64,000 nt of DNA, taken from IMG/VR virus record IMGVR_UViG_2537562001_000004; one strand, written 5' to 3'. A model generated the notes under the pieces. That model saw nothing but the letters and a program-made list of their open reading frames with translations, was not told where the DNA came from and searched no databases. Shown piece after piece: positions 6,766-56,950 of the stretch. Each line of letters starts with the position of its first letter. Position 1 is the stretch's first letter. The stretch comes from a virus. The translations under genes were made by a program, and so were the position numbers.

Positions 6766-6857
6766 GAATAGCGTATTTTGTGAATTATGAGTATAAATTC
6801 ATCTAAATTTTAACTTTCTAGCTTACTGAAAAAATAATCATAGACTGGAAAAGCTTT

Positions 6858-7697: not shown

Positions 7698-7899
7698 CCC
7701 TTTCTTAATCTTTTGTCTTATGTTGATAAAGATATTATATTATGGAATTTTAAAAATTTCATAATATAATATCCTTATTTGGAGTATTTCATCTGAACTT
7801 CCTAATAAATAAAAATATTATTACCTATGTATATGGCTATGTAATAAATTCTTTTTTCGTTTTTGAGAGGAATGTGTTTCTTAACTTGATAGAGATGTG

Positions 7900-8555
7900 G
7901 TTAAACCCCCAACTGGATTTAGTGATTAGTCGTGTACAATATGGTTCCAGATTAGTAGATCATCTATATACAAAATTAGAGCAATAAGGAATTCCTCATG
8001 CTGTATATGCCTATGAATGCTATGTATTTGTAGATGATGCGATTGTAGAAGCAAAAGACTTTTTAGAGAGAGTAAATCCAAATGCGAAGTTTCTTATTTT
8101 AGATGTGGAAGATGATACTTTGGATAAGAGTAAATTTGCAGAAGCATCACAAGCATTTATTGATACATGTCGTGCTTCAGGATGAAAAGTGGTTTATATA
8201 TATGTAGCACAACATATGTACGGTGATTATAAACTACAAAGTGTACAATCTGTACAAGCTGATTCATTTGGTTACCACGTTATGGGACAATCACAAATTA
8301 AGCCAGCGTATCCATGTGACATGTGGCAATATACAGATAATGGTTATATTGAAGGGGTTGGAAAAGTGAATATTAACTTACTACAAGGGGATAAAACATT
8401 AAGGTGGGATTTTGGAAAGTAGGCTAGTTTAATTACTCCAGAAGTAGGGAAACGGGTTGTTTCTAAGGTCGATCAATTACGATTCTATCCAAAACCTTCT
8501 TGGGTAAATGAAGATGATGCAGGTATTGTGACTAAAGGGTTAGGATTCACACCTA
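7900..8555 (+). pseudogene. GH25 muramidase plus SH3b endolysin, heavily decayed and truncated at its 3' end by an IS3-family insertion
   Basis: The translated fragments resemble the 32532..33258 endolysin (..DLWQYT../..[31 protein letters not shown]). ORF 8189..8422 is an internal piece. The reading frame runs straight into the IS copy at about 8556. Confidence 0.6.
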
Positions 8556-16746: not shown

Positions 16747-17103
16747 TTGGGGGTCTTAAATGATACTGATTTAACAAATGAAATCACAACAGTTTCTAAA
16801 CGAACAGGTCCTGATGTGGCGGAAAATACAAATCCTGCTCAAAAATTGATAATGAAGTTTGGTTTAACGGGCGAAGAAGTGATGAATCTAATTGCTTATG
16901 GCTATCAAAATAATTTAAATAAAACAGGTGACTATCTTAACAGTTTGAATGAATATGCGCCGTTATACGCGGACGCTCAATTTTCTGGAGGGCAGATGCT
17001 AGATTCGTTAATAAAAGATATGGAAGGCGGTGCCATGAATACCGACAAGGTTTCCGATGTAGTTAAGGAACTTCAACTTAAATTTGGTGATGGAACTTTT
17101 TAG
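16747..17103 (+). CDS. Hypothetical phage structural-protein fragment
   Basis: A 118-aa ORF inside a prophage remnant with no recognisable motif. Possibly a fragment of a larger tail gene. Confidence 0.25.
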   Translation: MGVLNDTDLTNEITTVSKRTGPDVAENTNPAQKLIMKFGLTGEEVMNLIAYGYQNNLNKTGDYLNSLNEYAPLYADAQFSGGQMLDSLIKDMEGGAMNTDKVSDVVKELQLKFGDGTF

Positions 17104-18723: not shown

Positions 18724-18797
18724 TGGACCTTGTAGGACTCGAACCTACGGCCGAACGGTTATGAGCCGTTTGCTCTAACCAGCTGAGCTAAAGGTCC
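18724..18797 (-). tRNA. tRNA with anticodon CAT (Met or lysidine-Ile2 type)
   Basis: The reverse complement ggacctttagctcagctggttagagcaaacggctcataaccgttcggccgtaggttcgagtcctacaaggtcca folds as a cloverleaf with a 7-bp acceptor stem and a CTCATAA anticodon loop. A terminator hairpin lies downstream and a conserved R4 promoter-like region lies upstream at 18798-18990. Confidence 0.85.
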
Positions 18798-19214: not shown

Positions 19215-20340
19215 TATAACGTAAGCTACAGGAACTTACATATACAATCGAGACACAAACAAGAAAGGGATAGGAAATATACATTTCCTATCCCTTTGAG
19301 TCTACAAAGGTTTCACTCATTCAATCACTCCTATTATCTTTTTGTAGGTTGAAAAAGATAATAGGTCAGTGGCGTATGAAAGTCTAATAAAAATATCAAA
19401 CCGTCAATAATACGTGAAATATCAGACCTCGAAATACCACTGTTAATTGATTTGGGAGTTCTATTTGCAAAAAAATAGCGTAAATAGGCATTATTTTTTG
19501 TTGAATTAATTAGTCGACAGTCAATTAGTGTTCATTGAAAAGAAAATATGTTTCATGAGATATTGTGTTCATTATAATAACGTTGCTAGGTGATTCGGAG
19601 GCCAGATGGCATAAGAGTTTCTCGAAAAGAAGATGTGTTTTTTCGTCAATAGATGAAAATTAGAAATATTTTCGAAAGGTGTATTTGTGTTATGTTTTAG
19701 GTGAGAATAGTCATGTGAAAGATGTCTATTCTAATTCAAGAATGTTTAAGGGCCACACAGAGGTTATCTTAAGTGTTTTTGACGACAATTTAATATTTAT
19801 GCTGACTTGGAAGGGTTTTCTCTTCCTTTGAGTGCACAGCAAAACGAATGTATCCGTTTTGCTGTGCGTTGAAAGGTGCGGAAACAACATAAACATTATT
19901 CACTACATTATGGTTTCTGATTTGATAAGAAGTCCTATTTTCTAAATTGGAGAGCGGGGCTTTTTATCGTGTATACAATATCTCATATACAGAGGCGAAT
20001 AGTGAGTTTCTTGAACAAAAAAACGCTTCTATTTTTTCGTTAATAAACGAAAAAATAGAAGCGTTTTCGAAAAACATTTCTGTAATAATATAGATGTAGA
20101 AGAAAAATTTACAATAACATCCTAAATTTCTTTGTTTTCGTAGGGAAGGTTTTCCTTCCTTTGAGCGTACAAAAAGCCAAGGAAAAAAGGCGATTTTGCT
20201 TTGCTGTACGTTGAAAGGTGCGGAAAACACCAAACTAGGGCAGCTTACTGTTTATGATACTTTATCAATGTAATAAATTTATTAAAAAGCCCTATCATTC
20301 ATAAAGATTAGAATGATAGGGCTTTTGGTCACTTAAGAGT
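19215..20340 (+). ncRNA. Copy C of the large structured element. M1 is truncated at its 5' end. There are two M3 modules (19809-19888 and 20143-20231) and terminator-like hairpins (19920-19965, 20285-20328).
   Basis: Same module order. The first M3 has a short loop of about 20 nt. A box motif is present at 19975-20010. Confidence 0.55.
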
Positions 20341-20377: not shown

Positions 20378-20523
20378 ATGATGGGCTGAAGGAAATACTG
20401 TCTATTATACTCCTTTTCATTCTGGTAGTAGGTTGTACAACTTTGATTATTGACACATTCAAAGTAATTCGTGAAAAACGTGTTGCTGATAGGGTGGTTG
20501 AGAGGGAAATGGAGCAATTGTAA
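20378..20523 (+). pseudogene. Small single-transmembrane phage protein, paralog of 45014..45178, with a stop at its third codon
   Basis: atgatgggctga..., then EILSIILLFILVVGCTTLIIDTFKVIREKRVADRVVEREMEQL. It sits after an M3-terminator unit, as do the intact paralogs. Confidence 0.5.
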
Positions 20524-20869
20524 TTACAATCAAAACCAGTTCTGAACTTGTAGAACAAAATAAAATATGATATCTTTACCCATCCCCTCGAAATGGGGGA
20601 ATAGCACTCAAAGTATTAAAAAATACACATATCAAAACTTATAAAGTTTAATTGACACATCTCAAATAAATATAAGTTTTATTTTTGAAACGAAAAAATT
20701 CTATATTTCTAGCTATGCCATAAAGTGTACTTTTTGACATAGCTAGAAAGTTTAAATGAATTAGGTTAATTCCCTTATTCCAACTATATTTAGGTGAAAA
20801 TATAGTTGGAATGACTGGATATGGTTCAATTTGAGGAATGAAACAAAGAAAATAACCGCTATATTACGT

Positions 20870-21060
20870 AGGATTATGCAACAGCAGATGTGATTCCACA
20901 GGGTTTGTTAAAGAGTGGTTATGCACATTATAAGTGTTTATGTTGTGAACACGCGGAGAAATTAGAAGTAACGAAAGATGAACATTTGGATGATGATCTT
21001 AGCATGGGTTATCACATTAGATTGGATAATAGGGAGTAGGGCAGCCAAGCTGGATGGAAT
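20870..21060 (+). pseudogene. C-terminal fragment of a homolog of the zinc-ribbon phage protein 44460..45017
   Basis: The translation ATADVIPQGLLKSGYAHYKCLCCEHAEKLEVTKDEHLDDD compares with TADAIQQGSLKSGNARYKCGCCGYADKVEVMKDEHFDGK. Confidence 0.45.
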
Positions 21061-22149: not shown

Positions 22150-23620
22150 AAAAAGCCCTGAAAAATCAAGCACTTAAAAGGTGGTTCCGATATTCGATCG
22201 GAGCCATCTTTTTTAATGTCCACTGATAACGATTATAATTATACTCCTCCATATAATCCTTTATGTTGAGCTCAAGGGATTCAAAGGTTTGACAATCTTT
22301 ATAATCTAATTCATCTTTCATATGACCAAAAAAGGATTCCATTGGTGCATTGTCTAAACAATTGCCCCTACGGGACATAGATTGTCTGATCCCCATTTCT
22401 CTTACACGTTTCTGAAATTCAGGGTGTGTATAATGAATACCTTGGTCTGAATGTAGAAGCGCTTCAGGATGAATGACTGCTCCTAATCTATCTTTCAAGT
22501 TATCTAATGTTTGATAGACGATATCCATTCGTAAAGAAGAGGAGACATGATAGGCTAAAATCTCTCGTGTTGTGCTGTCTTTTACACATGATAAATAAGC
22601 CTTCTTTCCTTTTCCATAAAATAAATAGGTAATATCCGTTAATATATTTTTTCAGGCTCTTCTTGATTGAATTGGCGTTTTAAAAGGTTCGGACATGTTT
22701 TATGTTCTTGTGTCGCTTTTGCGATGTGTTTATAAGGATTCGCTCGGCGAATCTTTGTCACAAGATTATATTTACGCATAATACGGTAAATACGTTTGAG
22801 ATTCATACAAATTCCTTTTGTCTTTTCCGACACCATTTTGATAGAACGACCACCACATGTTTTCCCTTTTCGATTAAAAATTTCTTGGATCCATTCATAA
22901 TCTGTTTCATCATTGCGTTCTTTTTCCAGGTGTTTATCTGTCTGATGAAGCCACGCATAGTATCCGCTCCGACTTACCCCAGCCAGTGTGCAAAGATAAC
23001 GCACCATACGTGGGAATTGGAATCGACGTATGGTTTGTTCAATTAGTGTGTATGTTTCTCGTGGTGTTAACGCTTCTTCTGTAACGCCTGCCTTTCGAGT
23101 TCGTCTAACTTTTTTAGGAATGTCAATTCCGCTTCTAAAAACGCAATACGTGCTTCCGCTTTCTTTAATTTTTCAGCAGAAGAGAGAGGTTTTTCCGAAG
23201 GGCGTCCCGTGCTTCCTTTCCCGCGGCGTTCTGTATAAAAGCCTTCCTCACCAAATCGTTCAAAGGTTCTTCGCCAACGTTTCAAGCATTGTTTTGGTTT
23301 CTTCTCACCAATCACAGCTAAGTCGAACCCATTCTCTAAAAAGATTTGGCTAGGACCTTTTCCTTGTTGATTTTCTTTTACCGCTCTTACTTTGAAATCT
23401 GAACAATAGCTAATCGAACGTTCCGATGCTTTTAATACATTTTTATTTTTTTCTAGCTGTTTCATTTGAATTTCGTTAAAAATAATTTTACTCATTCTCC
23501 GTACCTCATTTCTATCGTTGGTTCCATTATAACGAGGTTTTTTTGATAAAAATACACAAAAACCCCGAATCATGGGGCTTTTTTTAGTGTCCATGATTCG
23601 GGGTACAGTTCACTGCAAGG
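22150..23620 (-). mobile_element. IS3-family insertion sequence of a different subgroup. OrfA (23067..23594) is intact. OrfB is broken into 22639..23007 and 22166..22528.
   Basis: OrfA has a helix-turn-helix plus leucine zipper (AEARIAFLEAELTFLKKLDELE). The orfB pieces carry DDE transposase motifs (HSDQGIHYTHPEF, RGNCLDNAPMESFFGHMK). A gap of about 110 bp and a frame change separate the two pieces. The element ends are approximate. Confidence 0.65.
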
Positions 23621-31630: not shown

Positions 31631-31736
31631 CAATTATGGAGTTTGAATTTCAAAAAAATTATAGAATTAGTTCCTACGTTAAGGGGAATTTAAGCAAAAA
31701 AGGAACTCAATAGATTGTTTTTTTCATTAACGGACC

Positions 31737-31810
31737 TTTAGCTCAGCTGGTCAAAGCAAACGGCTCACAACCGTTCGGTCATAGGTCGAATCCTACAAAA
31801 TCCATATAAC
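31737..31810 (+). pseudogene. Degenerate tRNA(CAT)-derived pseudogene
   Basis: ggacctttagctcagctggtcaaagcaaacggctcacaaccgttcggtcataggtcgaatcctacaaaatcca. The acceptor and T stems are broken and the anticodon has mutated to CAC. Confidence 0.55.
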
Positions 31811-32531: not shown

Positions 32532-33258
32532 CTAATCAATAGTAAACTCTAAACCTTTAGTTACAATTCCAGCAATGTCTTCATCCGCCCAAGAAGGTTT
32601 TGAATAGAATCGTAATTTCTCCACCTTAAAAACAACACGTTTACCTGCTACACTACTTGAAGGTGGAACTGATGACCCACTATGATTACCAGTAAACCAC
32701 TCTAAAGGCTTATCACCATTTAATAGATTCATATCAACATCTCCTAGTATACCTGCCATTTTCCCTTTATTTGTATACTGCCAAAGATCACATGAGAAGT
32801 CTGGCTTCACTTGTGGTGTTCCGTTATTTGTTCCATAGCGCGGAATCCAAATAAAGTCAGCTTGGTACACTCTGTAAATTATATTTGTTGTATAAATGAT
32901 GTGAGACATAAAAGTCCACTTTATACCCAGTTGCTCTGCATGTGTTAATAAAAAACTGCGAAGCCTTTACTGTATGATCTTCCACATCTAAGACTAAAAA
33001 CTTCACAGCAGGATCTATTCTCGATAAGAAGTCTTTCGCTTCTACAATTGCGTCACTCACACTTACAAAACATCCATAAGCATAATGTCCAAACGGAATG
33101 CCGTAGGCTTTACATCCCGTAATGTTTCGTTGATATTTACGGTCTATCAGATTACTTCCATATTGCACAAGAATAATAGTCATTTTGATGTATTGATGTG
33201 CAACACTCCAATCAATGTCTTCATTATGATGTGATAAATCTACGATTGTTTTTTTCAT
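32532..33258 (-). pseudogene. Phage endolysin, GH25 muramidase plus SH3b, frameshifted (ORFs 32857..33258 and 32532..32909 overlap)
   Basis: DLSHHNEDIDW and GIPFGHYAYG (GH25). The C-terminus is SH3b ([28 protein letters not shown]). The two ORFs sit in different frames. Confidence 0.75.
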
Positions 33259-33929: not shown

Positions 33930-34090
33930 GATTTTGAGTTTGCTTTGTTATTTTTCATCGTCTTCAATTGCTCCATTTCCTTCTCAATCATCCTGTCAAT
34001 CTCTCGTTTTTTATGAATCATTTCGTTAAATGCATTTATAGTAAATGAACCCCCATACTAACAATTACAATGAATAGTATTTCTTTTATC
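33930..34090 (-). pseudogene. Degenerate copy of the small transmembrane protein gene. A box motif lies at 34141-34200 and an M3 module at 34276-34385 upstream.
   Basis: The reverse strand carries ...gagaaggaaatggagcaattgaag.. (EKEMEQLK) with multiple stops. Confidence 0.4.
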
Positions 34091-34958: not shown

Positions 34959-35832
34959 TCAGAGAAAAAATACACCTTCTCCTCGAGGGACTTTTATCCC
35001 CTCTAGCCTCCGCGCCACTGTGTAAGTAGATTGAGTGTGTTGTCTTTTGATCTCTTTTTGAGTTGGTTCTGTATCTTCATGTAACCAATCAGGGACAATT
35101 TCTATTCGTTTTCCATTGTTTCCCCTCGAGTATTCTTTTCTTTGTTTTTCCCTTTGGAATCGGGCATCTATTGCTGCAACATCATCTAGCATTTTTACTG
35201 TCTCTCTTTCCCAATTTTTCAAAATAACATGTACGTATCCCCATTTCAGCGCATTTTCATCCACCGCTTTATTAACTGCATGCTCAATTAACTGACTGCC
35301 AAACAGCATACAAAATCTTTGTAACTTTTCTTCAGCCTTTTTACTTAGAGCGATTTTTTCCCTTTAAAATAGTCACGGGCTATTTTATATTCTTGTTCAA
35401 TTGATTTTTGAGATAATGGATTATCGTCATCATGATAATGATTAGTATTTAGTAGTATGGGACTTTCCTGTCACTAGATTTTCCACTGGTGGAGAATGCA
35501 CCCAGTGGCTCCACTTGCGGAACTTCATGAATTACTGTTTCCCCACTAATAATTTTGTTGTTATCATTTCTGATTGGAATGCGTCGTAAATATCTATATT
35601 CTTTTAACTCCTTCATGCCACTTCTCAAACTATCAACACCATCTTTCGCATGGGTAGCTAGCTCATCTCGATAAAACATCCAATCATCTGGAGGAGTAAG
35701 GATATATGCTAAAATCCCTTTTGCCTTCCATGAAAGTCTTTCATCTCTTAAACCGGTATTATTTACGACAGAATAATTTTTGTTCTTTTCCACTCTTACA
35801 ATTCCCATATTCCCTACCTCTCCTGTTTGCAC
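34959..35832 (-). pseudogene. Phage replication initiator (winged-helix N-terminus plus DnaD-like C-terminus), frameshifted. The palindrome gaacccgctgcagcgggttc lies upstream at 35877-35896.
   Basis: ORF 35449..35832 (LSWKAKGILAYILTPPDDW) and ORF 34959..35309 (NALKWGYVHVILKNWERE) are in different frames and are separated by about 140 bp. Confidence 0.55.
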
Positions 35833-39679: not shown

Positions 39680-39753
39680 CGGACCTTTAGCTCAGCTGGT
39701 TAGAGCAAACGGCTCATAACCGTTCGGTCGTAGGTTCGAGTCCTACAAGGTCC
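39680..39753 (+). tRNA. tRNA with anticodon CAT (Met or lysidine-Ile2 type), intact
   Basis: ggacctttagctcagctggttagagcaaacggctcataaccgttcggtcgtaggttcgagtcctacaaggtcca. The acceptor GGACCTT pairs with AAGGTCC. The anticodon CAT is at 39714-39716. No CCA is encoded. A conserved upstream R4 region lies at 39452-39679. Confidence 0.9.
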
Positions 39754-41400
39754 ATAAATACCTTGTCATTCACATCAACTTGACAAGGTATATACTAAGA
39801 AGTAAAATAACTATCCGTGTAAAAACTTGGTTTATACACTCCATTGTGAAAGATCGGGTTAACACCAACAACTTTCATGACATTCTTAATTGTGTTTATC
39901 AAGGATGTACATCAGAGCGGTTTAACAAGTGGTAATAACGAAAGAGATAGGGCTCTAATATAGTTAACAATTTGCGTGAACTGCATTACTCAAAATGACA
40001 TCTAAACAAACAACAAAAAGACATCTTCAACTGGGGAAGATGTCTTTTTTATCAAAACTAAAAACCAACATTTTTTCCTTTGAAAAAGAAAAAATATATC
40101 ATTTGAATTTTCATTTCACACATATAATATACTTAGACGTTCCGAACTTCTAAGTCAAAAATCACCTTATCGCAATGGGATTTTTTTAAAAAAGCGTTTT
40201 ACAGCGGACCATAAAATAAAAAAGAAGCCTCCACCATCATATTCTAATGACAGTGGAGGCTTCTTTTTTGTGTGTAAATCTCAACAGTCTAGAATCATAC
40301 ACTTTAGGACATAACGGAAGAACAAAAACTGGGAGAATTCATTCTAAATACATCGACTTGTAACTATAATCTCATAAATCCAACACGAAAAGCGATTTAT
40401 TATTTCCTTTAATAAAAGAAATAATAAATCTCCGTAATTCCGAATGTAGTTATATACTAACATTATAAATTTATTTTGACCTACTTTTGTTTTTGTAATG
40501 TCATGACATACATTGTTTGATTAGGATTCGCGCCTTTTCAAACAACAAAAAATCCCCGAAACTCACACAGAGCATCGGGGATTTTTCTATGATTCTTGAG
40601 GAAATCATTTAATCACCATTATAATCTCATAAAATACATCGTTAAAACTATATGAAATTTCCTTTAATACAGAAAAACAAAGTATGGTTTGGCCATTATG
40701 CTGTGATAAGCTTTAAGTGCATACATAAAAAGTTGGAATAAGCAATTAAGATGTCTGATTGGGAAACGAACATCTTAAAGAACCTCAGCAACAGAAAAAG
40801 CCAGAACTCAAATTGAGTCCTGGCTTTTTTACATTTATACAATCACATAGAAAAGGCTCCCAACCGTACAATTGGGAACCTTCCGAGGGAGAAAAATAAT
40901 ATAGATAAAAATAAAGTATATGTCAATTCCAATAATGGATTCATAAATATCATCTCACAAAAGTATCATCTAAGATGATTGAAATTTGCCTTTATATGAG
41001 AAAATAAAGATTTCTAATTCTAAAGATTCTATGATGTATTTTGTATTGCAAAGACGGGAATTGACATCTAGTACCGTGACACGAAGAAAGAGCTTATTCT
41101 CATGTGGAGATTGGGCTCTTTTTTATTTCGTAAGGTTATATAACAAAAAGAGCCCTCAACAGTTTTGTTGAGGGCTCTCTAATTAGGGTATACAGAAAAA
41201 AGAAACACATGACATACATTCAATCGCATCATCTCACAAAAACAACATTCAAAATGATTGAAAATTTCCGTTAGCCCAGAAAAAAATAGTACCCCTATAC
41301 ACTAATGCATTATGATAATATTTATTTGACAATCGCAGTCACAGAAAATGTATGTTTACGGATATTTATAAAAAAAGAACCAGAACTCTTCCCCTTGAAG

Positions 41401-42472
41401 TGAACCCCGAAAACGGGGCACCTATCAAAACACCTAAACCATCTGTTCCCTATATTCTTTAGGGGATAGGTGGTTTAATTTTTCTTGAATTCGCACACGA
41501 TTGTAGTAATGAATGTATTCTAGCACAATCTTTCGCACAGTTGTGTTGGATACTTTTGTTTATCTTTTGTGAGTAGAAAGCTTCGCTTTTTAAATGACCA
41601 AAGAAGCTTTCCATGACGGCATTATCATGGCAATTTCCTCTCCGGGATATGCTTGAAATTCCTTCGCAGTATACATACTTCCTTGATCCGAGTGAAGGAT
41701 GACATCTTTTACTTTTCTCCCTCGCATTGCTTGTTTTAATGTTTTCATCGCTAATGTTAAAGTTTGTGATTCACTGATGACATAACAAATAATTTCACGA
41801 TTAAAGGCATCTATAATCGTTGATAAATACAATGTGCGCCCTCCAAATAATAGGTAAGTCACATCCGTAAACCGCTTTTCATTTTGGGTTGATGATTCGA
41901 ATTGACGTTCCAATCGATGAGGGTCTACGACTGGTTCAGCACCATTGATATATTTCTTTTTCTTACGATGCACTTTTGAGAGTATATGATATTGTTTCAT
42001 AATCCGTAATACTATTTTATGATTGACACATAGCCCCGTTTTTCGAAGAGTGGCGGTCACTCTTCGATATCCATACCGTAATTTATGCCTAAGGCAGACC
42101 TTCTTTGCTTTCTCTTCTATCTCGTCTTTAGGGCGCTCGGCTTTCTGTAACCAATGATAAAATGAGGAACGTGGTAATTCTAATACTTTACACAGTTCTT
42201 TTATGGTTACTTTTGTTTTTAAATGCTTATTTTCTAATCGTAGCCGTTCCAATTCACTTAGCTCTTTTGATCCTTTTCATAAGAATATTGTTTTCCTACA
42301 GGTTGTTGAAAACGGTACGTTTGACCGGTGCGATACCATTTCATCCATGTCTTAATTTGGGAAATATTTTTAATTCCAAGCTTCTCCATAATGGTCCGAT
42401 TGGAATACCCATCCTTTTTCATTTCAATCACTTTCCACTTTACTTCTTCTGGGTAATGAACTCTTGTTTTCA
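41401..42472 (-). mobile_element. IS3-family insertion sequence, copy 2 of the 8556..9711 element. OrfB is frameshifted by a deletion of about 27 bp.
   Basis: ORFs 42258..42533 (orfA) and 41590..42252 (orfB) are 85-90% identical to copy 1. The deletion removes AKEKGIITS and shifts the frame at ..AKEFQAYPGEEIAMIM. Confidence 0.7.
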
Positions 42473-42507: not shown

Positions 42508-43796
42508 TGAAGTGACCCAATGAAATAAGACAAGGAAAAAACACCTATGCTACCTGTTTCTTATATTCTATAGGAGACAGGTAGTTTAACTTTTCTTGAA
42601 TACGTTCCGTATTATAATACTCAATGTAATCGTGAATGAGTTGTTTGAGAGTAGAAGTTGAATGTATTTGTTTTTCTTGGGAGTAAAACAATTCAGATTT
42701 CAATGAGGAATGAAAAGATTCTATTACGGCATTATCATGACAATTTCCTTTACGGGACATACTTGTGGTAATGCCATTCTCTTTAGATAACGTTTGGAAA
42801 GCGTAGGAGGTATACACGGCCCCTTGATCACTATGTAGTATAATTTGAGTCTTTTGTTTTAGTTTGATCGCCTTCTCAACTGTGTTTAAGACAAGTGTTA
42901 CGTCTTGTCTGTTACTTATTTCATACGCAATGATTTCATTGTTATATAAATCCATAATACTTGATAAATACAACATCTCTGTACCAAATGGCAAATATGT
43001 AATGTCTGTAACCCATTTTTCATTTGGCTTGTTAGCTTGAAAGTTTCTATTTAAGAGATTCTCTACAACAATTCTACTTTCTCCATTGATCCAGGTTCTT
43101 CTCTTTCTTTTAACCCTACATTGTAAACTTTTCTTTTGCATTATTTTTTGTACAGTTTTTCGATTTAGGTGATAATTATATTTTCGTTTCAATAAAGCAG
43201 TAACTTTTCGATGGCCATATCGAAAGTGATTTGTCATACAAATTGTCAAAATAGCCTGTTCTAATTTTGCTTCCTTTACATCTTTTGCTTTATTTTTCCA
43301 TCGATAATAAGTAGAACGAGGTATACCAATTAATATACATATCTCTTTAATGGAGTACTCATCTTTCATCAACTCCACTACTTCTACAACTACTTCTTTA
43401 ACCAACTCCTCTCGATTTCGTGGTACTTTTTTAAAATATCTAGTTGCATTTTTAATTTCCGATTCTCTATTTGAAGTTTCTCGATTTCAGTTATGCCTTC
43501 TTCACTAGCCTTTTGTAGCGCACTTTGTTTTCCTACAGGGCGATTAAAACGATACGTTTCACCTTCACGATGCCACTTCATCCAAGTTTTAATCTGTGCT
43601 TTATTTTTAATTCCTAATTGTTCCATAATTTCTTTGTTTGTGTATCCTTGTTTTTTCAGTTCGATTGTTTTCCATTTAATTTCTTCTGAATAAGATTTTC
43701 TCGTTCCCATAAAAGAAACACCTCCGTATATTCGTATTTAAATTAAATACGGTATAAGAGGTGTTTTTTCCTTGTCTTATTTCATTAGGTCACTTC
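42508..43796 (-). mobile_element. IS3-family insertion sequence (second type), apparently intact (orfA 43390..43710, orfB 42545..43405). It abuts IS copy 2.
   Basis: Terminal inverted repeats of about 38 bp (tgaagtgaccYaatgaaataagacaaggaaaaaacacc). OrfA has a helix-turn-helix and leucine zipper. OrfB has an rve DDE domain (HSDQGAVYTSYAF..GNCHDNAVIESF). The orfA/orfB overlap is typical of a -1 frameshift. A possible 3-bp target duplication is att. Confidence 0.75.
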
Positions 43797-43831: not shown

Positions 43832-44140
43832 TCAAATCGAAGTATCTCTCGATAAAATCCAAAATAAAAAGACTTCTTCTTTAGAAACCTTTAGTAGATT
43901 GATTGTATAATTCAATTCATTTTCATCTTGTAACTTTTCTTTCACTTTATCTAATGACATCCTCTTACACTTCCTAGTGTTCACGCAGTTCCTAACTTGG
44001 CAGTAACGCCAATAAGAATACTTTCTAAACTGATTCAACATATCTCTTTCATAAGAAGTTCGTTCTTTCTTCTCAGCATATTGAATCATTAAGTCCGTAT
44101 CGAATGTCCAACTACTATCAGTAATAATCATATCTACCAC
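43832..44140 (-). CDS. Hypothetical phage protein downstream of HNH, possibly the 5' part of a packaging gene cut off by the IS at 43796
   Basis: A 102-aa ORF that ends about 35 bp before the IS boundary. Confidence 0.3.
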   Translation of the reverse strand: MVDMIITDSSWTFDTDLMIQYAEKKERTSYERDMLNQFRKYSYWRYCQVRNCVNTRKCKRMSLDKVKEKLQDENELNYTINLLKVSKEEVFLFWILSRDTSI

Positions 44141-44448
44141 CGCTCTTCATTCATGAACTTAGGTTTCTTCTTCTCAACCTTATCTAACCGATCATGCACT
44201 TCGTTATGACAACGGATGCACAGACATTGTAAGTTATCCAAGTCTAATACTAACTCTGGATGTGTCTTCACTTCCTTCATATGATGCACATTCTCAACAG
44301 GTCTGTACTTTCCTTTTGACTTACACATCTGACATTCATAGTTGTCACGCTTCATTGCTTCTTGTCTTAGTGCTTTCCATTCTTTTGATTTATAAAACTT
44401 CTGGAGTTTGTTCTCTTTAATGAGTTGAATCAGTTCATGGATTTCCAT
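44134..44448 (-). CDS. HNH endonuclease, phage packaging-associated
   Basis: CQMCKSKGKY..VHHMKEV...NLQCLCIRCHNEVH, the zinc-finger HNH motif. It sits in the usual position before terminase genes. Confidence 0.75.
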   Translation of the reverse strand: MEIHELIQLIKENKLQKFYKSKEWKALRQEAMKRDNYECQMCKSKGKYRPVENVHHMKEVKTHPELVLDLDNLQCLCIRCHNEVHDRLDKVEKKKPKFMNEERW

Positions 44449-44459
44449 ATTTCAAATAC

Positions 44460-45017
44460 CTATTTGTATAACCTATAAACAAAACAATCTACAAAAGCAC
44501 CTTTGCACTTTGGGCAAATCTTCCCATCGAAATGTTCGTCTTTCATTACTTCTACTTTATCTGCATATCCACAGCATCCACACTTATAACGTGCATTGCC
44601 GCTCTTTAATGAACCCTGTTGAATTGCATCTGCTGTTAGATATTCCTTCGTAACATAGCGTTTATTTGCCCGTTCTTCATTAACAAACCCTTGCCCAATA
44701 ACCTCCAAGATACCATTAAATGCTTTATTCAATTCTGTAGCTATGGTTCGCAAAACTTTAATTGCTTTTTTGATATCTTCTTTCTTTTCTTCTTGTTCAG
44801 GTGTCATATCTAAAATATGACCATATTCCTTTTTCAATTCTTCAAATTCTTTCTTTGATTGATTCGATCTTTCGTTTAACAATTGCAATTGTATCCCGTT
44901 TTGTCTTGCAATTTCAGAACTTGTTTCAATATTCATTCGAATCTGTTTCCTCAAAACTTCTTGCTCTTTAATCCAAGCGTTCATTTGACGTACATATATT
45001 TCATGTTTATTCATCAT
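44460..45017 (-). CDS. Phage protein with an N-terminal coiled coil and a C-terminal C4 zinc ribbon (hypothetical)
   Basis: A 185-aa ORF with YKCGCCGY...CPKCKG. Pseudogene copies exist at 4070-4650 and 20870-21060. Confidence 0.5.
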   Translation of the reverse strand: MMNKHEIYVRQMNAWIKEQEVLRKQIRMNIETSSEIARQNGIQLQLLNERSNQSKKEFEELKKEYGHILDMTPEQEEKKEDIKKAIKVLRTIATELNKAFNGILEVIGQGFVNEERANKRYVTKEYLTADAIQQGSLKSGNARYKCGCCGYADKVEVMKDEHFDGKICPKCKGAFVDCFVYRLYK

Positions 45018-45238
45018 TTATCGCTCCTTTGTTTTATAGCCTTCAATTGCTCCATTTCCTTCTCGACCATCCTTTTAACATCACGTTTTTCACGAATCAC
45101 TTTGATAATGTCAACCATCCAATTTGTACAACTTGATACCAGAATGACAAGGAATATAATGGACAATATTTCTCCCATCCCACCACTCTCCTTTTCACAC
45201 AAAAATAGAGCAACCAAACGGTTACTCTTGTATAGCAA
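45014..45238 (-). CDS. Small single-transmembrane protein, probably 54 aa starting at the ATG near 45178. Resembles a type I toxin or holin.
   Basis: The ribosome-binding site aaaggag lies 8 nt before ATG GGA GAA ATA. MGEILSIIFLVILVSSCTNWMVDIIKVIREKRDVKRMVEKEMEQLKAIK. Paralogs lie at 45981..46202 and 47001..47198. Confidence 0.55.
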   Translation of the reverse strand: MLYKSNRLVALFLCEKESGGMGEILSIIFLVILVSSCTNWMVDIIKVIREKRDVKRMVEKEMEQLKAIKQRSDK

Positions 45239-45299
45239 AAAGCGTGATTTATTCTGATCCTTGAGAATAAATCATGCTTTAAGAAAAACATATATTCAA

Positions 45300-45610
45300 T
45301 AGATGTTTGCGCCCTAGTCTGGTGTTTTCCACACCTTTCAACGTACAGCAGAATCAGTGCAGGAACTGAAGGGAACCGGTTAATTCCGCTGTACGCTCAA
45401 AGGAAGGGAAACCCTTCCCATGTCTTGGGTAAATTAATTTTGTGAAGTTGCGATCCACACCTATATTATTCCATAATCACCTTTTTGAAAACGCTTTTAT
45501 TTTTCATCTATTAACGAAAAAACACGTTTTCTTTTCAAAGAACTCTTATCCCCTCTAGCCTCCGCTTCACCGAGTAACGTTTATTATAATGGGCACGCTA
45601 TGTTCCTTCT
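45300..45610 (-). ncRNA. M2 partial (45480-45600), M3 hairpin module (45321-45419) and a terminator (45239-45285) leading the small transmembrane-protein gene at 45178
   Basis: ggtgttttccacacctttcaacgtacagcag-[loop]-gctgtacgctcaaaggaagggaaacccttcc. Confidence 0.55.
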
Positions 45611-45719
45611 CCAATAAGGATGTTTATAGAATTTAATAATATTATCTTGTTCATATAGTTTTATGATTTCTTGTATTGTTAGAGGTTGCATGAACTATCT
45701 TCACCCCTTTTTAACAACG

Positions 45720-45854
45720 CTTTGATTCATCATTGATCCATTGCATTTAGGACAGTTCCACCCATCACGTATCTTATGAGAAGTCTCTTCAAATCCACAA
45801 TTTTTATTTAGACACCAATGTTTTGTTAATGGCATTTTCAAAGTTCTTCCTCCT
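45720..45854 (-). CDS. Small zinc-ribbon protein (about 44 aa), related to the N-terminus of 55446..55748
   Basis: MPLTKHWCLNKNCGFEETSHKIRDGWNCPKCNGSMMNQ compared with THYCLNKECEWTETSHKMCDGMKCPKCKGHFMS. Not in the ORF track because it is under 60 aa. Confidence 0.45.
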
Positions 45855-45980
45855 CCAAAATAAAAAGAGCAGCAAAAAAGCTACTCGTTTTCAACTGGTT
45901 TTAATTTAAGTGCATTATCATTAATATCTTCTACAATACGCTCAACATCTACATCAAACATTTCATCCTCAACTCTAATC

Positions 45981-46202
45981 TTATCGCCTTTTCGAATGTT
46001 CGATAAAGTATCCTTCACCCTTTATCGCTTTCAATTGTTCCATTTCCTTCTCGACCATCCTGCTAACAGCACGCTTTTCACGAATCACCTTGATTACATC
46101 AATAATCCAACTTGTACAACTTGATGCCAAAATACTAACGGATATAATAGACAGTATTTCTCCCATCCCACCACGCTCCTTTTCGCATAAAAAATAGAGC
46201 AA
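45981..46202 (-). CDS. Small single-transmembrane protein paralog (true start probably near 46166)
   Basis: MGEILSIISVSILASSCTSWIIDVIKVIREKRAVSRMVEKEMEQLKAIK. A box motif lies at 46212-46290 and a terminator at 46291-46337 upstream. Confidence 0.55.
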   Translation of the reverse strand: MLYFLCEKERGGMGEILSIISVSILASSCTSWIIDVIKVIREKRAVSRMVEKEMEQLKAIKGEGYFIEHSKRR

Positions 46203-46377
46203 CCCAATAGTTGCTCTTAATTAACACCAACCGCCGTAACGATTAGAGGAACTTACTATACGTCTCGGTATATGAGATAGTTCGTATACAAAAAAGCTCT
46301 ATTGTTCTGACCCTTAAGAACAAACAGAGCTTTTTTGCAATTGTGCAATATATAAGAAATGACACCGATATTTCCCT

Positions 46378-46905
46378 GGTGTTTCCGCACCTTTCAACGT
46401 ACAGTAAAGTATGGGAGAAGGCATGTTAGGATACCTTTTAACTTTACTGTACGCTCAAAGGAAGGGAAACCCTCCCAAATCAGCATATGACATATTTAGT
46501 TGTTATTAAGAACATTTAAATCAGCTTGCACCATCAATAAATGCTCTTACTCCAAGGTCGATGTGGTAAATCGACTATCTACCTCCCTATAATCACATAT
46601 ATTCACTTTGAAAACACATCTGTTTTTTCATCTATTAACGAAAAAACAAACTTTCCTTTCAAGGGAACTCTCTATACGTCTTGGCATGTGAGCGCGACAA
46701 AAAGTCCTGTTCCCTAATCCAGAAACAGAACTCCCTATCAAATTAAGAATAGATGACAGCAATATGCGTTCGAAAACCCAATAAGCCTTTGGTGTTTTCC
46801 ACACCTTTCAACGTACAGCAGATTAAGTGAGGGAACGGATTTAGGGTACCTGTTAATTCTGCTGTACGCTCAAAGGAAGGGAAACCCTTCCCCGTATATG
46901 AAGTT
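46378..46905 (-). ncRNA. Two M3 hairpin modules (46378-46475, 46791-46890) with an M2-tail and box (46580-46700) between them
   Basis: Module 46378-46475 carries the compensatory pair caacgtacagTAaagt paired with actttActgtacg, where other copies have cagCag paired with ctGctg. Confidence 0.55.
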
Positions 46906-47000
46906 ACTAGATTGCGGAATGAGCATCCACCAACTTATTTTAACAGAATTTCATCACTTGGATATCTATATTTTTTCCTCATAAAATGAAAATTCTTTTA

Positions 47001-47198
47001 TTAAAAGAGCAACCATGCATCAGTTGCCCTTTCGTCGATTTCCTTCTTCAACGACTTATTCATATCACGTTTTTCACGGATCACTTTGATTATGTCAATA
47101 ATCCAACTTGTACAACTTGATACCAGAACGACAAGAAATATAACAGACAGTATTTCCCCCATCCCATCACACTCCTTTTCGCATAAAAAATAGAGCAA
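47001..47198 (-). CDS. Small single-transmembrane protein paralog (true start probably near 47162)
   Basis: MGEILSVIFLVVLVSSCTSWIIDIIKVIREKRDMNKSLKKEIDE. An M3 module (47294-47408) and terminator (47222-47256) lie upstream. Confidence 0.5.
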   Translation of the reverse strand: MLYFLCEKECDGMGEILSVIFLVVLVSSCTSWIIDIIKVIREKRDMNKSLKKEIDERATDAWLLF

Positions 47199-47221
47199 CC
47201 AAATGGTTACTCTTCAACGAC

Positions 47222-48100
47222 AAAAAGCCCTGTCTTGGGTAAACAGAGCTTTCTATCAGAAAAAAGTTATTACATATACTACACAATAGGGACGGTGTTT
47301 TTCTACACCTTTCAACGTACAGCAATTTTTTTAATGTGAGCACTACGATTGATTTTTCAATGTCAGTTTTGTTTTGCTGTACGCTCAAAGGAAGGGAAAA
47401 CCCTTCCCCATAATATGATTTTAAAGGTAAGAACAACACGTAAGTTGGCTACTTACACTTATATTTTTACACATATTCATTTCAAAAACGCTTCTGATTT
47501 TTCATCTATTAACGAAAAAACACGTTTTCTTTTTGAGGAACTCTTATCCCCTCTAGCCTCCGCGTCACCGAGTAACGTTATTATAATGAGCACGCTATCC
47601 CACGAAACGTATTCTCTTTTCAAAGAACACACTTATTGAACACTGGTTAATACGTACTAACAAAAAACAACGTAACAAAACGTTGCCTCTTGCATAGATA
47701 ACACCCGATCAATTAACAGTAGTAATTGAGGTTTCAGCTTTCGCGCATTACTGACGAGTTAAAATGTTTTAGACTTTCATACGCTACTCACCTATTACCT
47801 CTTTCAGCCTACAAATGGAATGGATAACGATTGAATGAGTGATTGGAACCTTTGTAGACTCAAAGAGATAGGAAATGTGTATTTCCCACTCTTTCGTGTT
47901 CAGTCCAGTATATGGATGGTTTCCCATCTTTAAAGGTATTCACCTTAAGTTGCAGTGCGAAATTCCAACTTAAAACAATCCCCTTAAAGAGAGGAAATCC
48001 TCTCCTCCTCGTTGGTCGATAACTAATTTGTTATCATTGTGAGTAATTACAAATTAACTGCTCGGCTTGAGATGTTTAAACAAAATAAAAGAGCCAACAG
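47222..48100 (-). ncRNA. Copy E of the large structured element, reverse orientation. M1 is at 47690-48100, M2 at 47450-47640 and M3 at 47294-47408. It lies directly downstream of the intact ArpU gene.
   Basis: The reverse complement aligns along its full length with copies A and B. Confidence 0.6.
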
Positions 48101-48231
48101 ATACCAGCAGGTTTGCTAGGATGCCTTATCGACTCTTTAATCATAAAATACTTATTATCAGTGTGATTCCTTTGTTTTTCCCTTCTTTTTTCGCATTTTT
48201 TCCGTCATTTCGCTCTTTTCCACCTCTATTC

Positions 48232-48600
48232 CTAGTGCATATGCCAATCTTCTAAACGCTCTAGCTCGTTTGTTATAGTATGGTGTTTTTCCAGCCCTAA
48301 CTTTTGGGACATCACAATCCAGTTATGCTCTTTTGATTCCACATAACCTTCACGTATAATTCTTTGCTCTTGTACGTTCAATGCATTCTCTATCGCATCT
48401 TCAAAATCTTTGATGTATTCGTATCGTTTTCTCTTTTTTTCTGATACCTCAAGACCATTTTGGATATCTTCCCGATCTCCCTTTGTAACGCTTAGCAAAT
48501 ACAGCCGATACTTTTCTAATGCTTGATGTACATTAGCCTTTGTAGCTTCCATATCTAACTCAGGAATTTTAATATCAAGCATTTCAATCCACTCCTGCAT
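48232..48600 (-). CDS. ArpU/RinA-like phage late transcriptional regulator, intact
   Basis: A 122-aa ORF whose C-terminus (QRIIREGYVESKEHNWIVMSQKLGL) resembles a sigma-70 region-4-like helix-turn-helix. Pseudogene paralogs lie at 2140-2575 and 56990-57436, each followed by the large element. Confidence 0.5.
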   Translation of the reverse strand: MQEWIEMLDIKIPELDMEATKANVHQALEKYRLYLLSVTKGDREDIQNGLEVSEKKRKRYEYIKDFEDAIENALNVQEQRIIREGYVESKEHNWIVMSQKLGLEKHHTITNELERLEDWHMH

Positions 48601-49343
48601 AAAATTCCAAATCTAGCACATACTATAGTTACCAGCTAGACCTACTTCCATGAATTTGATTTTTCTCCCACTCTCCCTGGAGATGAGCAGTTAGTTTTTG
48701 CTAGCTGCTCTTTTATTTCGTTCCTGCACTTGTTTCTTGAAGAACTCCTTAACCGCATTTTCCCAATACGTACACATACCCATTCTCCTTTTTCTACAAA
48801 GTGAAATTTTCATAATCATAATTAGATAAAATCAACATAGACTTTAATGAGATTGGGTATTTATTAGCGATTGGGAGCATTCTAGTTGGACGCTCCTTTT
48901 TTTCTGCTGACAAAATAGCCTTTTCGTTCAAATCACATATTTCTTATTTCTTTTAACTCCTACATCCACTTCCCAATACTCAATCCCGTCATTCGTAATA
49001 CCAAACGAAACGATCTTACCTACAATTTCAGAAACTTTATTCTCGATAGTTCTACACCTAAATACTAATGTTTCACCAATTGCAGCTTTATCTTTCCCCA
49101 TATAAGGTTAATATCTTTTCATTTTTGTCTCCCTTTCTCTCAAATAACAATTCCGTTTGCTGCTCAAGGTTCACACGAATTACATTGTTTTACATAAATG
49201 AATATTATATCTTTATAATGCAACTCAAATAAAATTTGAGCTGTTATACCACGACTCCTGGGAAACCAGGAGTTTTGATATGTACTAAAGGTTTTGCATT
49301 ACTATCCGGACTCCTATATTTCAAGAAGCCCAGATTGCATTAT

Positions 49344-53179: not shown

Positions 53180-54760
53180 CTTTTTAAGCTTCGCCCCTGG
53201 TTTTGCACCAATTGAAGCTATTTGAGATTCATCACAAATTACTTACTTCATAAAATCTTCCACTGTGACGCCTTTCGCTTCTGCATCACCTGTATCCAAT
53301 TTCACTAAAGTAACGTCATTAAATAACAATGGATTAGCTGTAATTGTGTATGCAACATCATCCATAACCATCATTGTTTCTTTATGGGCAACTAAAAAAG
53401 CCACAAATCCATCAATCTTCTTTTTGGACTGTCGGTAATTAAACGCTTTTCATAAATTAGTATTTCTGAATCATCAAGCATTGCATTCATAACGTTTGGA
53501 TACTGATTTACGGCAATACATTCTAAACCGAGATTTTCAAGCTTCTCTATTAACTTTTGAGACATCGCTGGGTCATAGTTTATTTGTTGCACATCGTATA
53601 AACCCATGCATTCAACGATATATTCCATAACTTGATCATGCTCAATCATCTTTCCATCACAAAACGTAGCAAAACCACGTTCAACTATATCGGTATATGG
53701 GACATTGTCCTCTTTTTCTTTAAAATCAATGTTCTCATTAGGAAGGAAATACATCTGTTTAACTTTTATAATCGGCCTTTCTTCGTCATCATGTGAAAGG
53801 GAGTTTAAACTTACACAGGTTAATCTGTTGTTTTAGATAAATCCAATCCTAAATAGCAACCTTCACCTGTAAGGTCACCCAAATCTTCTGCAAGAACATG
53901 TTGTACTTGATCATGCTCAAAATAATTATCAGCACCATTTACGAAAACATTTAAGTGTTTGGAAAGAAACTCAGCTTTTGAATGTGCGGACTGCTTCGCT
54001 TTTTTGAATTCAATCTCAAGTGGCTCCATCGCAACGGAAACACCAATATTCGGGTTAACCATTTCCAAAACTTTACGATCTTCCCAATCATAATTTTTAT
54101 TAGGTTCCCAGATTGCTACAAATAAGGAATCATCATCATTTTCAAGAACAAGTTTCGCATATTTATAAACACGCATACCGACAGATGACGTAACCTTACC
54201 AGCCGTTGAAATATTAAGCATCATTGGTTATTCACGTGAAATCTGAGCTGACTTCAAGTTATCGTACATCTCCATATTTTCTTGCGCATGGGGTTCATCG
54301 TTCAAGACAAAATAAGGGTTCTTTCCTTCAAGCCCCTTAGGGTTTTTCGTTAATACTTTGAATTTATTTTGATATACAATTCCATTGATGCTATATCGAT
54401 ACATAATTAACACCTTTATAAATTTGAGTAGGTTGTGCCAGAGGTTCAGGGTCTTCTATTGCTTGTGCAATTGGTTCAGCTGCGTTTTGCGCTTATTCAT
54501 AGTCTGATGCTGCACAATAACAATCCGCTCCAAGTTCTAGTTCACCATACATAGCATAGAGCAATGCACTTGCTGCAATAATTGTTTTTCCATTCTTCTT
54601 TGGTACTTGAACATATGATTCACGAATAACACGAACGTTTTTTCCTTTTTCGTTTTTATGATACCAACCATACATATTCGCAAAAACAAACATTTCCCAA
54701 AGTTCTAATTCCATCAATTGACCTGCAAGTGGCCCTTTAACATGAAGAATGAACAAAATC
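53180..54760 (-). pseudogene. Phage terminase large subunit, fragmented into at least four ORFs
   Basis: 54493..54756 has Walker A (VPKKNGKT). 53820..54224 and 53392..53754 carry nuclease-domain-like segments (GLDLSKTTD). Frames alternate and stops intervene. Confidence 0.6.
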
Positions 54761-56069: not shown

Positions 56070-56950
56070 GCCCTATTCTTCAATTAAGAAAACAGGGCTT
56101 TTCGCCGGTTTAAGAGAATGTGTTCTACAAAAAAGTTAGCACATTTTCTCGTCTGGTGCTTTCACACCTTTTAAATATTAAATTGTTATAGTGCGAAATT
56201 ATTTTCCGCACCTTTCAACGTACAGCAGATTATAGATGTGAGTGCAAATAATGGTTTTTGATGTCATGTTTATTCCGCTGTACGCTCAAAGGAAGGGAAA
56301 TCCTTCCCTAGAAAAATAAAAAAATCAAGAATATAGGTGCGAAGTTGTCATCCACACCTATATAATCACACATATTCATTTCGAAAGCACTTCTAGTTTT
56401 TCATCTATTAACGAAAAAACACGTATTCTTATCGAGGAACTCTTATCCCCTCTAGCCTCCGCACCACCGAGTAACGTTTTTTAATGAGCACGCTATCCCA
56501 TAAAACGTATTATCTTCTCTAAGAACATTTATTGACCGTTGGTTAATTAATCGAACAAAAAATAACGCTTATTTACGTTACTCTTTGAAAGGAAAAATCT
56601 AAATCAATTTAAATCAATCAAAAACAATTATTAAGGCTTCGGCCTTCACGTATTACTGACGGTATAAAATTTGTTGTAGACTTTCATACACTACTAACCT
56701 ATTACCTTTGTAGGCTGAAAGAGATAGGAAATGTGTATTTCCCCCTCTTGTGTATCGGCACTTCAGTATATGGATAGTTTCTCATTTTTAAAGGTACTCA
56801 CCTTAAGCCATAGTACGAAATTCCAACTTAAAACAATACCCTTATCTTCTTCCTCGTTGGTCGGACCCTTGCTTACGTTTATTCGTGAGTAAACTATAAT
56901 TAATTGCCCTTGCCGAGTGTTTAAATAGAATTGAAAAAAGACATCAATTT
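56070..56950 (-). ncRNA. Copy F of the large structured element, reverse orientation, with an M3 at 56190-56308 and an extra half-unit at 56153-56180. The central M1 stem-loop is collapsed by an internal deletion at about 56700-56730.
   Basis: The reverse complement aligns with the other copies. Where they have ctctttgagtctacaaaggtt[35 nt]tttgtaggctgaaagaggtaat, this copy has only ctctttcagcctacaaaggtaat. Confidence 0.55.

Follow-up and report, generated by a model that had tools for sequence, protein, structure and literature searches.

A repeated structured module with tandem terminators in Bacillus cereus-group prophage remnants, a possible leader of phage late genes

The 64,000-nucleotide (nt) viral sequence IMGVR_UViG_2537562001_000004 (the window, by which we mean this whole stretch) carries on its minus strand a repeated cassette between an ArpU-like gene and an HNH endonuclease gene. 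Each cassette is built around a structured element that we call the module. A sequence-only reading of this region had listed the parts of the cassette in order from the ArpU-like gene to the HNH gene, and we found them in that order. It had cast the module as an accessory, a view that did not hold up: the module is the best-supported and most conserved part of the cassette. We propose that the cassette serves a late (packaging) unit of the phage as its 5′ leader, in which tandem terminators form an antitermination checkpoint, and we put the probability of this at roughly 0.4.

Structure and conservation of the module

The module is 100-125 nt long and occurs in 13 canonical copies in the window, with about 25 more in related loci. 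The copies noted earlier all exist, but their number had been set too low: the window holds about seven divergent copies besides the 13 canonical ones. A module 15-mer matched the window 30 times, compared with 0.65 expected matches. A copy starts with GGAAGGG-UUU-CCCUUCC, continues with UUUGAGCGUACAGC, a variable centre of 25-55 nt and GCUGUACGUUGAAA, and ends with GGUG(Y)GGAAA(A)CACC. A covariance model (R1) trained on 21 copies identified 26 canonical copies when applied to the window together with the first related loci, as well as further copies in metagenome contigs and in loci encoding homologues of the small protein described below. The four modules flagged in the sequence-only reading (modules A to D, Table 1) scored 87-102 bits (E <= 6e-19).

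Three helices make up the module. P1 is a GGAAGGG/CCCUUCC hairpin, P2 is a long helix whose base (5′-CUUUGAG..CUGAAAG-3′) contains an invariant G·G mismatch, and P3, the last in the module, is a small hairpin with a GGAA(A) loop. With this three-helix model, 95.8% of the cells in the canonical set were paired, and five pairs had changed on both sides, compared with 1.5 in shuffles (0/500). The P2 stem of module C carries a compensatory change (GUACAGU/ACUGUAC). The canonical set was too invariant for more covariation signal, and divergent relatives were added. These retain the basal helix 5′-CUUUGA...UGAAAG-3′, while the stem above it has been swapped (GUACAGC, CUACAAAGG, and UAACAAC or UCACAAC, each with its complement). 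The basal-helix alignment was made by hand and without gaps from the two helix strands, with a fixed GAAA linker replacing the apical part. Including the divergent members, 7/17 pairs and 29 cells had changed on both sides, compared with 8.4 in shuffles (0/500), and slid-register controls were all far lower. Both Gs of the G·G mismatch never vary in this alignment, and a G·U pair is retained in 26/26 canonical copies. Because the two strands are made unequal by this G·U pair and by the asymmetry of the G·G mismatch, the module fits a single strand folded in the sense of the genes, and not a double-stranded protein-binding site, as far as can be read from the sequence.

Folding z-scores of the four flagged modules ranged from -4.3 to -5.7. 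An alternative fold, one long rod (structure B), is energetically competitive and is the minimum free energy structure for about half of the copies. We rejected the rod as the conserved structure, since it is compatible with the sequences but its covariation was not above that of shuffles. Judged from the folding models, bistability of the module between three hairpins and rod is possible. Identity between copies was 89% in the core and 54-62% in the apical loops and 80-nt flanks, compared with 60% for random sequence. As the core is conserved while the loops and flanks are random, selection appears to act on the core alone. The core is intact in 13/13 window copies, although the adjoining protein genes are fragmented.

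The spread of the module and its mosaic flanks could also be accounted for at the level of DNA, by an imperfect palindrome that serves as a recombination or mobility site, whether similar to a MITE (a miniature transposable element with inverted repeats), of bcr type, or a single-stranded DNA hairpin. The arms do form an imperfect inverted repeat of ~33 nt around the variable centre, copies are many and their flanking blocks are shuffled. The B. cereus group also carries the interspersed repeats bcr1-bcr18, some of which have a conserved structure (PMC6542083, PMC3446304). Still, we consider a DNA repeat very improbable. The outermost ends of the module are its least conserved part, no target-site duplication was seen on reading the copies, and arm spacing is variable (22-54 bp). 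Orientation always matches transcription, with the terminators on the same strand, and a conserved G·U with a strand-asymmetric G·G is unlike selection by a dimeric DNA-binding protein. Moreover, bcr families are reported from most strains, whereas the module 19-mer was found at two loci in ~185,000 representative genomes, one of them unconfirmed. This rarity in representative genomes argues against identity with the widespread bcr repeats.

Other candidate identities were rejected. An Eubacteriales metagenome-assembled genome (L005) that matched the 19-mer was not hit by the covariance model and represents a chance match. A degenerate pattern yielded 11 extra loci on viral contigs (L010-L021), all of which reflect one conserved coding sequence without module features. 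The gap pattern had zero matches in representative genomes, and the module was not found in GenBank phages. A MITE or other transposable repeat does not agree with conservation that peaks towards the inside of each arm and fades outwards, the outermost AGGGG/UCCCU pairing being present in 5/26 copies as read by eye. Integron attC-like sites have a similar conserved base and variable top, but the orientation of the module follows transcription and terminators follow it. No integron integrase turned up in the window, where no search aimed at one was made.

When the whole window was searched against Rfam 15 at the gathering threshold, three tRNAs passed and the module matched no family. At E <= 10, the best matches in 44000-48700 were chance-level miRNA and snoRNA models far under threshold. 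Ribozymes, riboswitches, group II intron domain 5, phi29 pRNA and 6S RNA were rejected for lack of an Rfam match and an unfitting architecture. Domain 5 has a similar AGC/GUU pairing, but its bulge, fixed length and domain 6 are missing from the module. The literature searched contained no occurrence of the module core sequence. By these comparisons, the module falls outside all described RNA families and is a new RNA element. Being unannotated and absent from Rfam, and with its clear covariation, it would qualify for submission as a novel RNA motif.

Terminators, read-through and the small ORF

We determined the context of the module across loci (L numbers) by tblastn. A late-activator gene upstream and packaging genes downstream flank the module in the window and in L001, L003 and L004, and in every locus the module has the orientation of the late genes. 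The activator is ArpU-like in the window (48600, 57373) and sigma-region-4/DUF1492-like in L001, L003 and L004; both types match phrog_248. Downstream of the module are a 185-amino-acid (aa) protein or a Rho_N/HeH protein, followed by HNH and terS, with MITEIRK in some loci. This packaging-gene side is also visible in L007, L009, L025 and L029-L030. The 38-kb viral contig L004, which has full-length terS, terL and portal open reading frames (ORFs), contains one module only, at this place.

A hairpin with a T-run is found ~25-145 nt downstream of 26/31 modules scored. These first hairpins (T1) have a free energy (dG) of -11 to -15 kcal/mol with the T-run next to them, as predicted for intrinsic terminators. 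Their sequence varies between copies while the pairing is retained, and the spacer to the module is not conserved. A second terminator (T2) occurs in two lineages. One is the ‘box’, a terminator-like hairpin AGAGTAACC..GGTTGCTCT with a T-run that ends ~10 nt short of the ribosome-binding site, and the other is of the GGCACT..AGTGCC type and was found in L004 and L026. In cassettes A and D, the gap between T1 and T2 is only ~13 nt and T2 adjoins the ribosome-binding site. The sequence-only reading had described such a second hairpin and T-run abutting the ribosome-binding site; all three boxes were recovered in a terminator scan of the region, which returned 11 terminator-like sites versus 2.5 expected.

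With terminators directly before the ribosome-binding site of the small ORF, some conditional read-through would be needed. A sigma-70 scan of the minus strand found zero promoter-like sites between any module and its small ORF. As there is no intervening promoter-like site and the ORF is under purifying selection, it would be read through the module, T1 and T2. The module is the obvious candidate for a read-through element. Attenuation control, as suggested earlier, is thus supported in its need for conditional read-through but not in a classical attenuator layout. No alternative pairing between module and terminator, of a riboswitch or attenuator kind, was evident by eye, the comparison not being a systematic complementarity search, and the alternative module folds (three hairpins or rod) are confined to the module itself. 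T1 is a self-contained hairpin located 25-95 nt downstream of the module. A leader RNA and tandem terminators seem to exert the control, rather than a classical attenuator.

Many modules have upstream of them an AT-rich palindrome together with a promoter-like block whose last bases are TATA(A/G)G. Before module A, the palindrome is AAAACG..TTTTTTCGTTAATAGATGAAAAA..CGTTTT and the block is TTTGAAA-N16-TATAAG; by eye, this block aligns with the block before eight other modules. The sigma-70 scan did not call the promoter-like block upstream of the modules. We infer from its sequence and position that the block may be an activator-dependent late promoter. The palindrome overlaps the -35-like part of the block at about 19990-20050 (+), where it is perfect with 21-nt arms (AAACGCTTCTATTTTTTCGTT AATA AACGAAAAAATAGAAGCGTTT). 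Equivalent palindrome blocks are located at about 47530-47485, 46652-46608 and 45531-45488 (-). The palindrome is a candidate operator for a late activator or repressor.

In the leader that we propose, transcription would start at this block, which is conserved but non-canonical as a promoter and comes right after the late-activator gene. The first product would be a structured RNA of ~105 nt, the module; next would come a single intrinsic terminator or a pair of them (T1, T2), and then the small membrane protein, the zinc-ribbon and 185-aa proteins, HNH and terminase. Transcripts in the resting prophage would stop at T1/T2 and leave a short leader RNA. In late development, RNA polymerase would be made resistant to termination by the module, either unaided or together with a phage factor, leading to late gene expression, in the manner of lambda PR′-tR′ and nut, HK022 put, B. 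subtilis EAR or Tn916 canT. The four flagged copies would be tandem duplications or recombination products of the leader, first late gene included, in a decaying prophage. We infer, rather than compute, the transcription start sites, termination, read-through and the part of the module in read-through. The layout found is that of cis-acting antitermination RNAs, with a conserved structured leader RNA upstream of terminators and co-oriented with the operon. A more specific proposal, which we make tentatively and consider somewhat unlikely, is that the module represents a new class of such RNAs. Its hallmark would be the 5′-CUUUGAG/CUGAAAG-3′ helix with the invariant G·G, and it would pass tandem terminators alone or with an ArpU/RinA-type regulator.

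Several points weigh against a late-unit leader. The promoter-like block is without the canonical final T of the -10 element, and the case for read-through is built on the promoter-free gap and the selection on the ORF. T1 could simply end the activator operon upstream, in which case the module would be part of that operon's 3′ untranslated region. The core is intact before dead genes, so a trans-acting or self-maintaining role would fit better than a purely cis-acting one. No Rfam antitermination RNA resembles the module in sequence or structure, and a candidate partner protein that co-occurs in all loci was not found. Lastly, the range of the module is narrow, with one confirmed representative genome, four viral contigs, five plasmids and six metagenome contigs.

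A trans-acting role is what would be expected if the modules were stand-alone small RNA (sRNA) genes. Promoter, module and T1 would then yield an RNA of ~200 nt, possibly a host or phage gene regulator, a decoy, or an interference RNA against related superinfecting phages, and the closeness to late genes would be merely historical. The combination of promoter-like block, structured core and strong terminator resembles an sRNA gene, units occur in tandem runs of up to 3-4, and a core that is intact in 13/13 copies beside fragmented protein genes points to a function independent of downstream genes. The StxS sRNA, which results from termination at tR′, provides a precedent (PMC7547250). On the other hand, sRNA genes would not require the strict co-orientation and fixed place at the head of the late operon seen in every locus. 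A second terminator right after the first would be superfluous, the scan gave the small ORF no separate promoter-like site, and there is no known candidate target. We regard stand-alone sRNA genes as the main rival and as unlikely by themselves; they are compatible with a late-unit leader and both can hold, as for StxS (PMC7547250).

The three small ORFs (A to C, Table 1) were confirmed where the sequence-only reading had placed them, with the 54-aa protein sequence as quoted, and so were the degenerate copies at 20378-20523 and 33930-34090. The ratio of non-synonymous to synonymous substitution rates (dN/dS) was 0.19-0.28 in the part shared among the three intact ORFs and ~0.8-1.7 for intact ORFs versus the disrupted copy at 20378. 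The low dN/dS among intact copies suggests that the small ORF evolved as a coding sequence, and the small protein is probably real. Nine copies were examined, five of which are intact (P0004, the copy in L023 and three window copies) and four disrupted (two in the window, and both copies in strain RP43, L022). The family is very narrow, with four matches in 5.8 billion proteins and, for a profile, six in 1.84 billion representatives. Homologues are found in the same place, in the order module(s), small ORF, zinc-ribbon ORF and HNH. The last 9-10 codons of ORF A (47000-47040, -) come from a box-like hairpin GGGCAACTGATGCATGGTTGCTC with a T-run. Because the same hairpin also occurs in non-coding sequence (L001, 10550-10590; window, 56060), the tail of ORF A is probably a recombination product.

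As read from its sequence, the small protein has an N-terminal hydrophobic helix MGEILSIIFLVILVSSCTNWMVDII followed by a charged tail, and this is conserved in the alignment as well as among homologues. This agrees with the single N-terminal transmembrane helix and charged C-terminus described earlier, from which a toxin or holin had been proposed. Under such a scheme, the repeats would be type I toxin-antitoxin-like or holin-like cassettes whose toxin is curbed by leader, terminators and/or antisense RNA. Besides the protein architecture, this would suit the purifying selection among intact copies, the two terminators predicted to block expression tightly, and the disruption of 4/9 copies, as can happen to toxic genes. 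Opposite-strand promoter-like sites would suit it as well. These are present in ORF C (45133-45160, TTGATA-16-TATAAT, 11/12) and ORF B (46121-46148, TTGATG-16-TATAAT, 10/12), on the plus strand within the N-terminal coding part and aimed at the ribosome-binding site and box. An antisense RNA could start from these sites, or they could simply result from the codons there (VSS...II). However, promoter-like sites in the region are at chance level (16, compared with 14.7 expected from shuffles), and the third intact small ORF has none. Family membership was not borne out by hidden Markov model searches, as Pfam, NCBIfam and PHROGs gave no toxin or holin match, and no Pfam or NCBIfam match to toxin families was found at E <= 1. 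The only family match was phrog_21871, annotated as function unknown. The neighbours are the zinc-ribbon, 185-aa and HNH genes, with no adjoining endolysin gene as would be expected of a holin. The gene is syntenic in the late operon before the zinc-ribbon and HNH genes rather than part of a self-contained two-gene unit, and modules also precede genes for a tail spike (in the window) and a MITEIRK protein without any small ORF. A toxin or holin cassette is therefore improbable.

In phages of Gram-positive bacteria, the RinA/ArpU superfamily has been described as controlling late genes through activation of promoters (PMC3152322). Finding a conserved leader RNA and tandem terminators at exactly that place suggests an extra, or different, antitermination step. 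If our proposal is true, late control in these Gram-positive temperate phages would be by antitermination and not simple promoter activation, and copies in prophage remnants would still yield short leader RNAs acting in trans. The module would join a very short list of cis-acting antitermination elements, as a compact and easily testable member. That dead-looking B. cereus-group prophage DNA appears to retain a non-coding element under selection may point to a host or anti-phage function. The narrow distribution sets the practical limit of the finding.

Features and surroundings of the cassette

Table 1. Modules, terminators, upstream blocks and genes in the window
Feature	Position	Strand	Remarks
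ArpU/RinA-superfamily late activator gene, 122 aa	48232-48600	-	phrog_248 ‘transcriptional activator’, E = 3e-9
Two divergent module-like hairpins in ‘large element’	48009-47909, 47890-47788	-	31.0, 16.9 bits
‘M2’ block, AT-rich palindrome, promoter-like block	47455-47640	-	upstream of module A; repeat families D2, D4, D7
Module A	47288-47412	-	87.4 bits; folding z = -5.2
T1 and T2 after module A	T1 47250-47226, T2 47213-47191	-	dG -11.7, -12.6 kcal/mol
Small ORF A, 53 aa	47001-47162	-	C-terminus runs into another box-like hairpin
Module B	46785-46896	-	101.6 bits; folding z = -4.3
T1 after module B	46703-46732	-	dG -14.3 kcal/mol, then TTTTGTCG
Box remnant, palindrome, promoter-like block	46585-46695	-	before module C; repeat families D2, D8
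Module C	46372-46481	-	100.9 bits; folding z = -5.7
T1, conserved spacer block, T2 ‘box’ after module C	T1 46331-46295, T2 46217-46195	-	
Small ORF B, 61 aa	45981-46166	-	IEQ_05014
Zinc-ribbon ORF, 46 aa	45701-45841	-	phrog_16900, E = 1.4e-27
Second M2, palindrome, promoter-like block	45455-45620	-	upstream of module D; repeat families D2, D4, D7, D9
Module D	45315-45423	-	102.4 bits; folding z = -4.7
T1 and T2 ‘box’ after module D	T1 45278-45241, T2 45228-45207	-	
Small ORF C, 54 aa	45014-45178	-	IEQ_05013
185-aa gene	44460-45017	-	N-terminal phrog_16418 domain, C-terminal zinc ribbon
Phage packaging-type HNH endonuclease gene	44134-44448	-	PF01844, E = 3.8e-9; phrog_119, E = 1e-25
Module	3405-3522	+	upstream of copy of 185-aa gene (4069-4463)
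Three tandem modules	13395-13499, 13718-13840, 14116-14223	+	upstream of tail-spike gene 14366-16060
Two modules	19804-19894, 20138-20237	+	then disrupted small-ORF copy 20378-20523
Two modules	34838-34724, 34390-34270	-	then degenerate small-ORF copy 34090-33930
Module	56192-56312	-	between ArpU-like remnant 57373-57095 and HNH fragment/zinc ribbon/terS/broken terL

The product of 48600-48232 also matched TIGR01637 (phage_arpU; E = 2.7e-7), with 30.9 bits and thus under the NCBIfam cutoff of 43.1 bits. This gene is followed by ~800 nt of non-coding sequence. In folds of the two divergent hairpins of the large element, the one at 47890-47788, which is part of covariation set A6, has the G·G mismatch within its CUUUGAG...CUGAAAG helix, and the one at 48009-47909 has an unbroken UUUAAGG...CCUUUAAAG helix that lacks the mismatch. 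A terminator-like hairpin (45886-45867) precedes the 46-aa zinc-ribbon ORF, whose region has ~87-94% DNA identity to Bacillus phages, B. anthracis phages among them. Fragments of the 185-aa gene follow other modules (4069-4463, 20845-21000). A cos or pac site was rejected as an identity of the module: the genome end in related phages lies after HNH, ~1.5 kb downstream of the would-be module.

Two further small genes adjoin modules in related loci. A 63-aa Arg/Lys-rich protein (phrog_16399; L003, 1034-1222; L022, 9297-9485; L028, 1491-1309) is encoded directly after module and terminator, with an N-terminus of MRREKELLKQWKA / MRREKELLKQWKADLQ. In L004, a gene for a 45-aa hydrophobic DUF3956 protein (7860-7997, E = 1.8e-32) sits antisense to the late genes between the terminator of the module and the first late gene. 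As a bidirectional terminator bounds it, this gene is a moron-like insertion.

The window derives from Bacillus cereus BAG6X1-2 and is a prophage graveyard, made up of decayed remnants along with insertion sequences (ISs). Its small proteins are IEQ_05013 and IEQ_05014 of this strain, and all DNA matches in phage and plasmid collections came from the B. cereus group. Coding density across 1-64000 is very low, with 55 ORFs of >=90 aa, the longest of which is <=564 aa. Phage-gene fragments include a split terL (53392-54224), endolysin pieces (32532-33258), tape-measure (16747-17103) and DnaD pieces (34959-35832). IS3/IS4-type transposases are found at 42545-43710, 41590-42252, 22166-23594 and 5304-7697. 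The first of these, an IS3-family element (orfA/orfB, -), lies directly downstream of the HNH gene and a 102-aa phrog_5942 gene, where it occupies the expected place of terS and severs the late operon of the remnant. Because matches to B. mycoides plasmids are frequent, the graveyard possibly sits on a megaplasmid.

The window also contains two near-identical tRNA genes (39681-39754, +; 18724-18797, -), one base apart and both scoring 72.5 bits, and a degenerate third copy (31732-31804, +; 45.9 bits). The pair is probably tRNA-Met, given the anticodon loop CUCAUAA. In strain RP43 (L022, about 8190-8250), a piece of the same tRNA adjoins the cluster of modules. Such copies may have arisen by duplication of a phage attachment site, or they may be tRNAs carried by phages and moving with the remnants.

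Comparison with known systems

Repeats of the B. cereus group provide one comparison: some of bcr1-bcr18 have a conserved RNA-like structure and are transcribed in 5′ untranslated regions (PMC3446304, PMC6542083). Unlike these, the module is rare and tied to phage late regions. With txpA/ratA and bsrG/SR4, the cassette shares a small single-pass membrane protein in a prophage region whose expression is predicted to be blocked at the RNA level, but the protein has no family match and its gene belongs to the late operon. By eye, P3 (GGUGU-GGAAA-ACACC) is like boxB in having a 5-bp stem and a GNRA-like loop, and the pyrimidine-rich stretch CCUUCCUUUGAG upstream of it is like lambda nut. The N-terminus of the phrog_16399 protein bears, also by eye, a loose resemblance to the lambda N arginine-rich motif (…RRRERRAEKQAQWKAAN). 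Unlike in lambda N/nut, this 63-aa basic protein is not found in the window, in L004 or in most other loci.

The order of regulator gene, presumed promoter immediately after it, short leader, terminator(s) and late operon is that of the lambdoid PR′/tR′/Q system; the late operon, which here holds HNH and then terminase, presumably crosses the joined genome ends as in lambda. Unlike lambda Q, the regulator here is ArpU/RinA/sigma-region-4-like. Q works through a DNA site, and a conserved leader structure is not needed; here, the predicted leader RNA structure is the most conserved part. Early termination would yield a short RNA, like StxS, a leader-derived sRNA from PR′ (PMC7547250).

HK022 put, B. 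subtilis EAR, pLS20 conAn2 and Tn916 canT are alike in being structured 5′ RNAs that act in an orientation-dependent way upstream of intrinsic terminators in long mobile-element operons, and the module shares this arrangement. Rfam includes the EAR/epsC motif. Cis-acting antitermination RNAs are known from mobile elements of Gram-positive bacteria (PMC11658703). Unlike put, EAR, conAn2 and canT, the module folds compactly, as a rod or as three hairpins, around a G·G mismatch motif, and its antitermination is deduced. By analogy, the architecture is of a known kind, a late-operon leader with terminators and presumed antitermination, in which the class of regulator differs.

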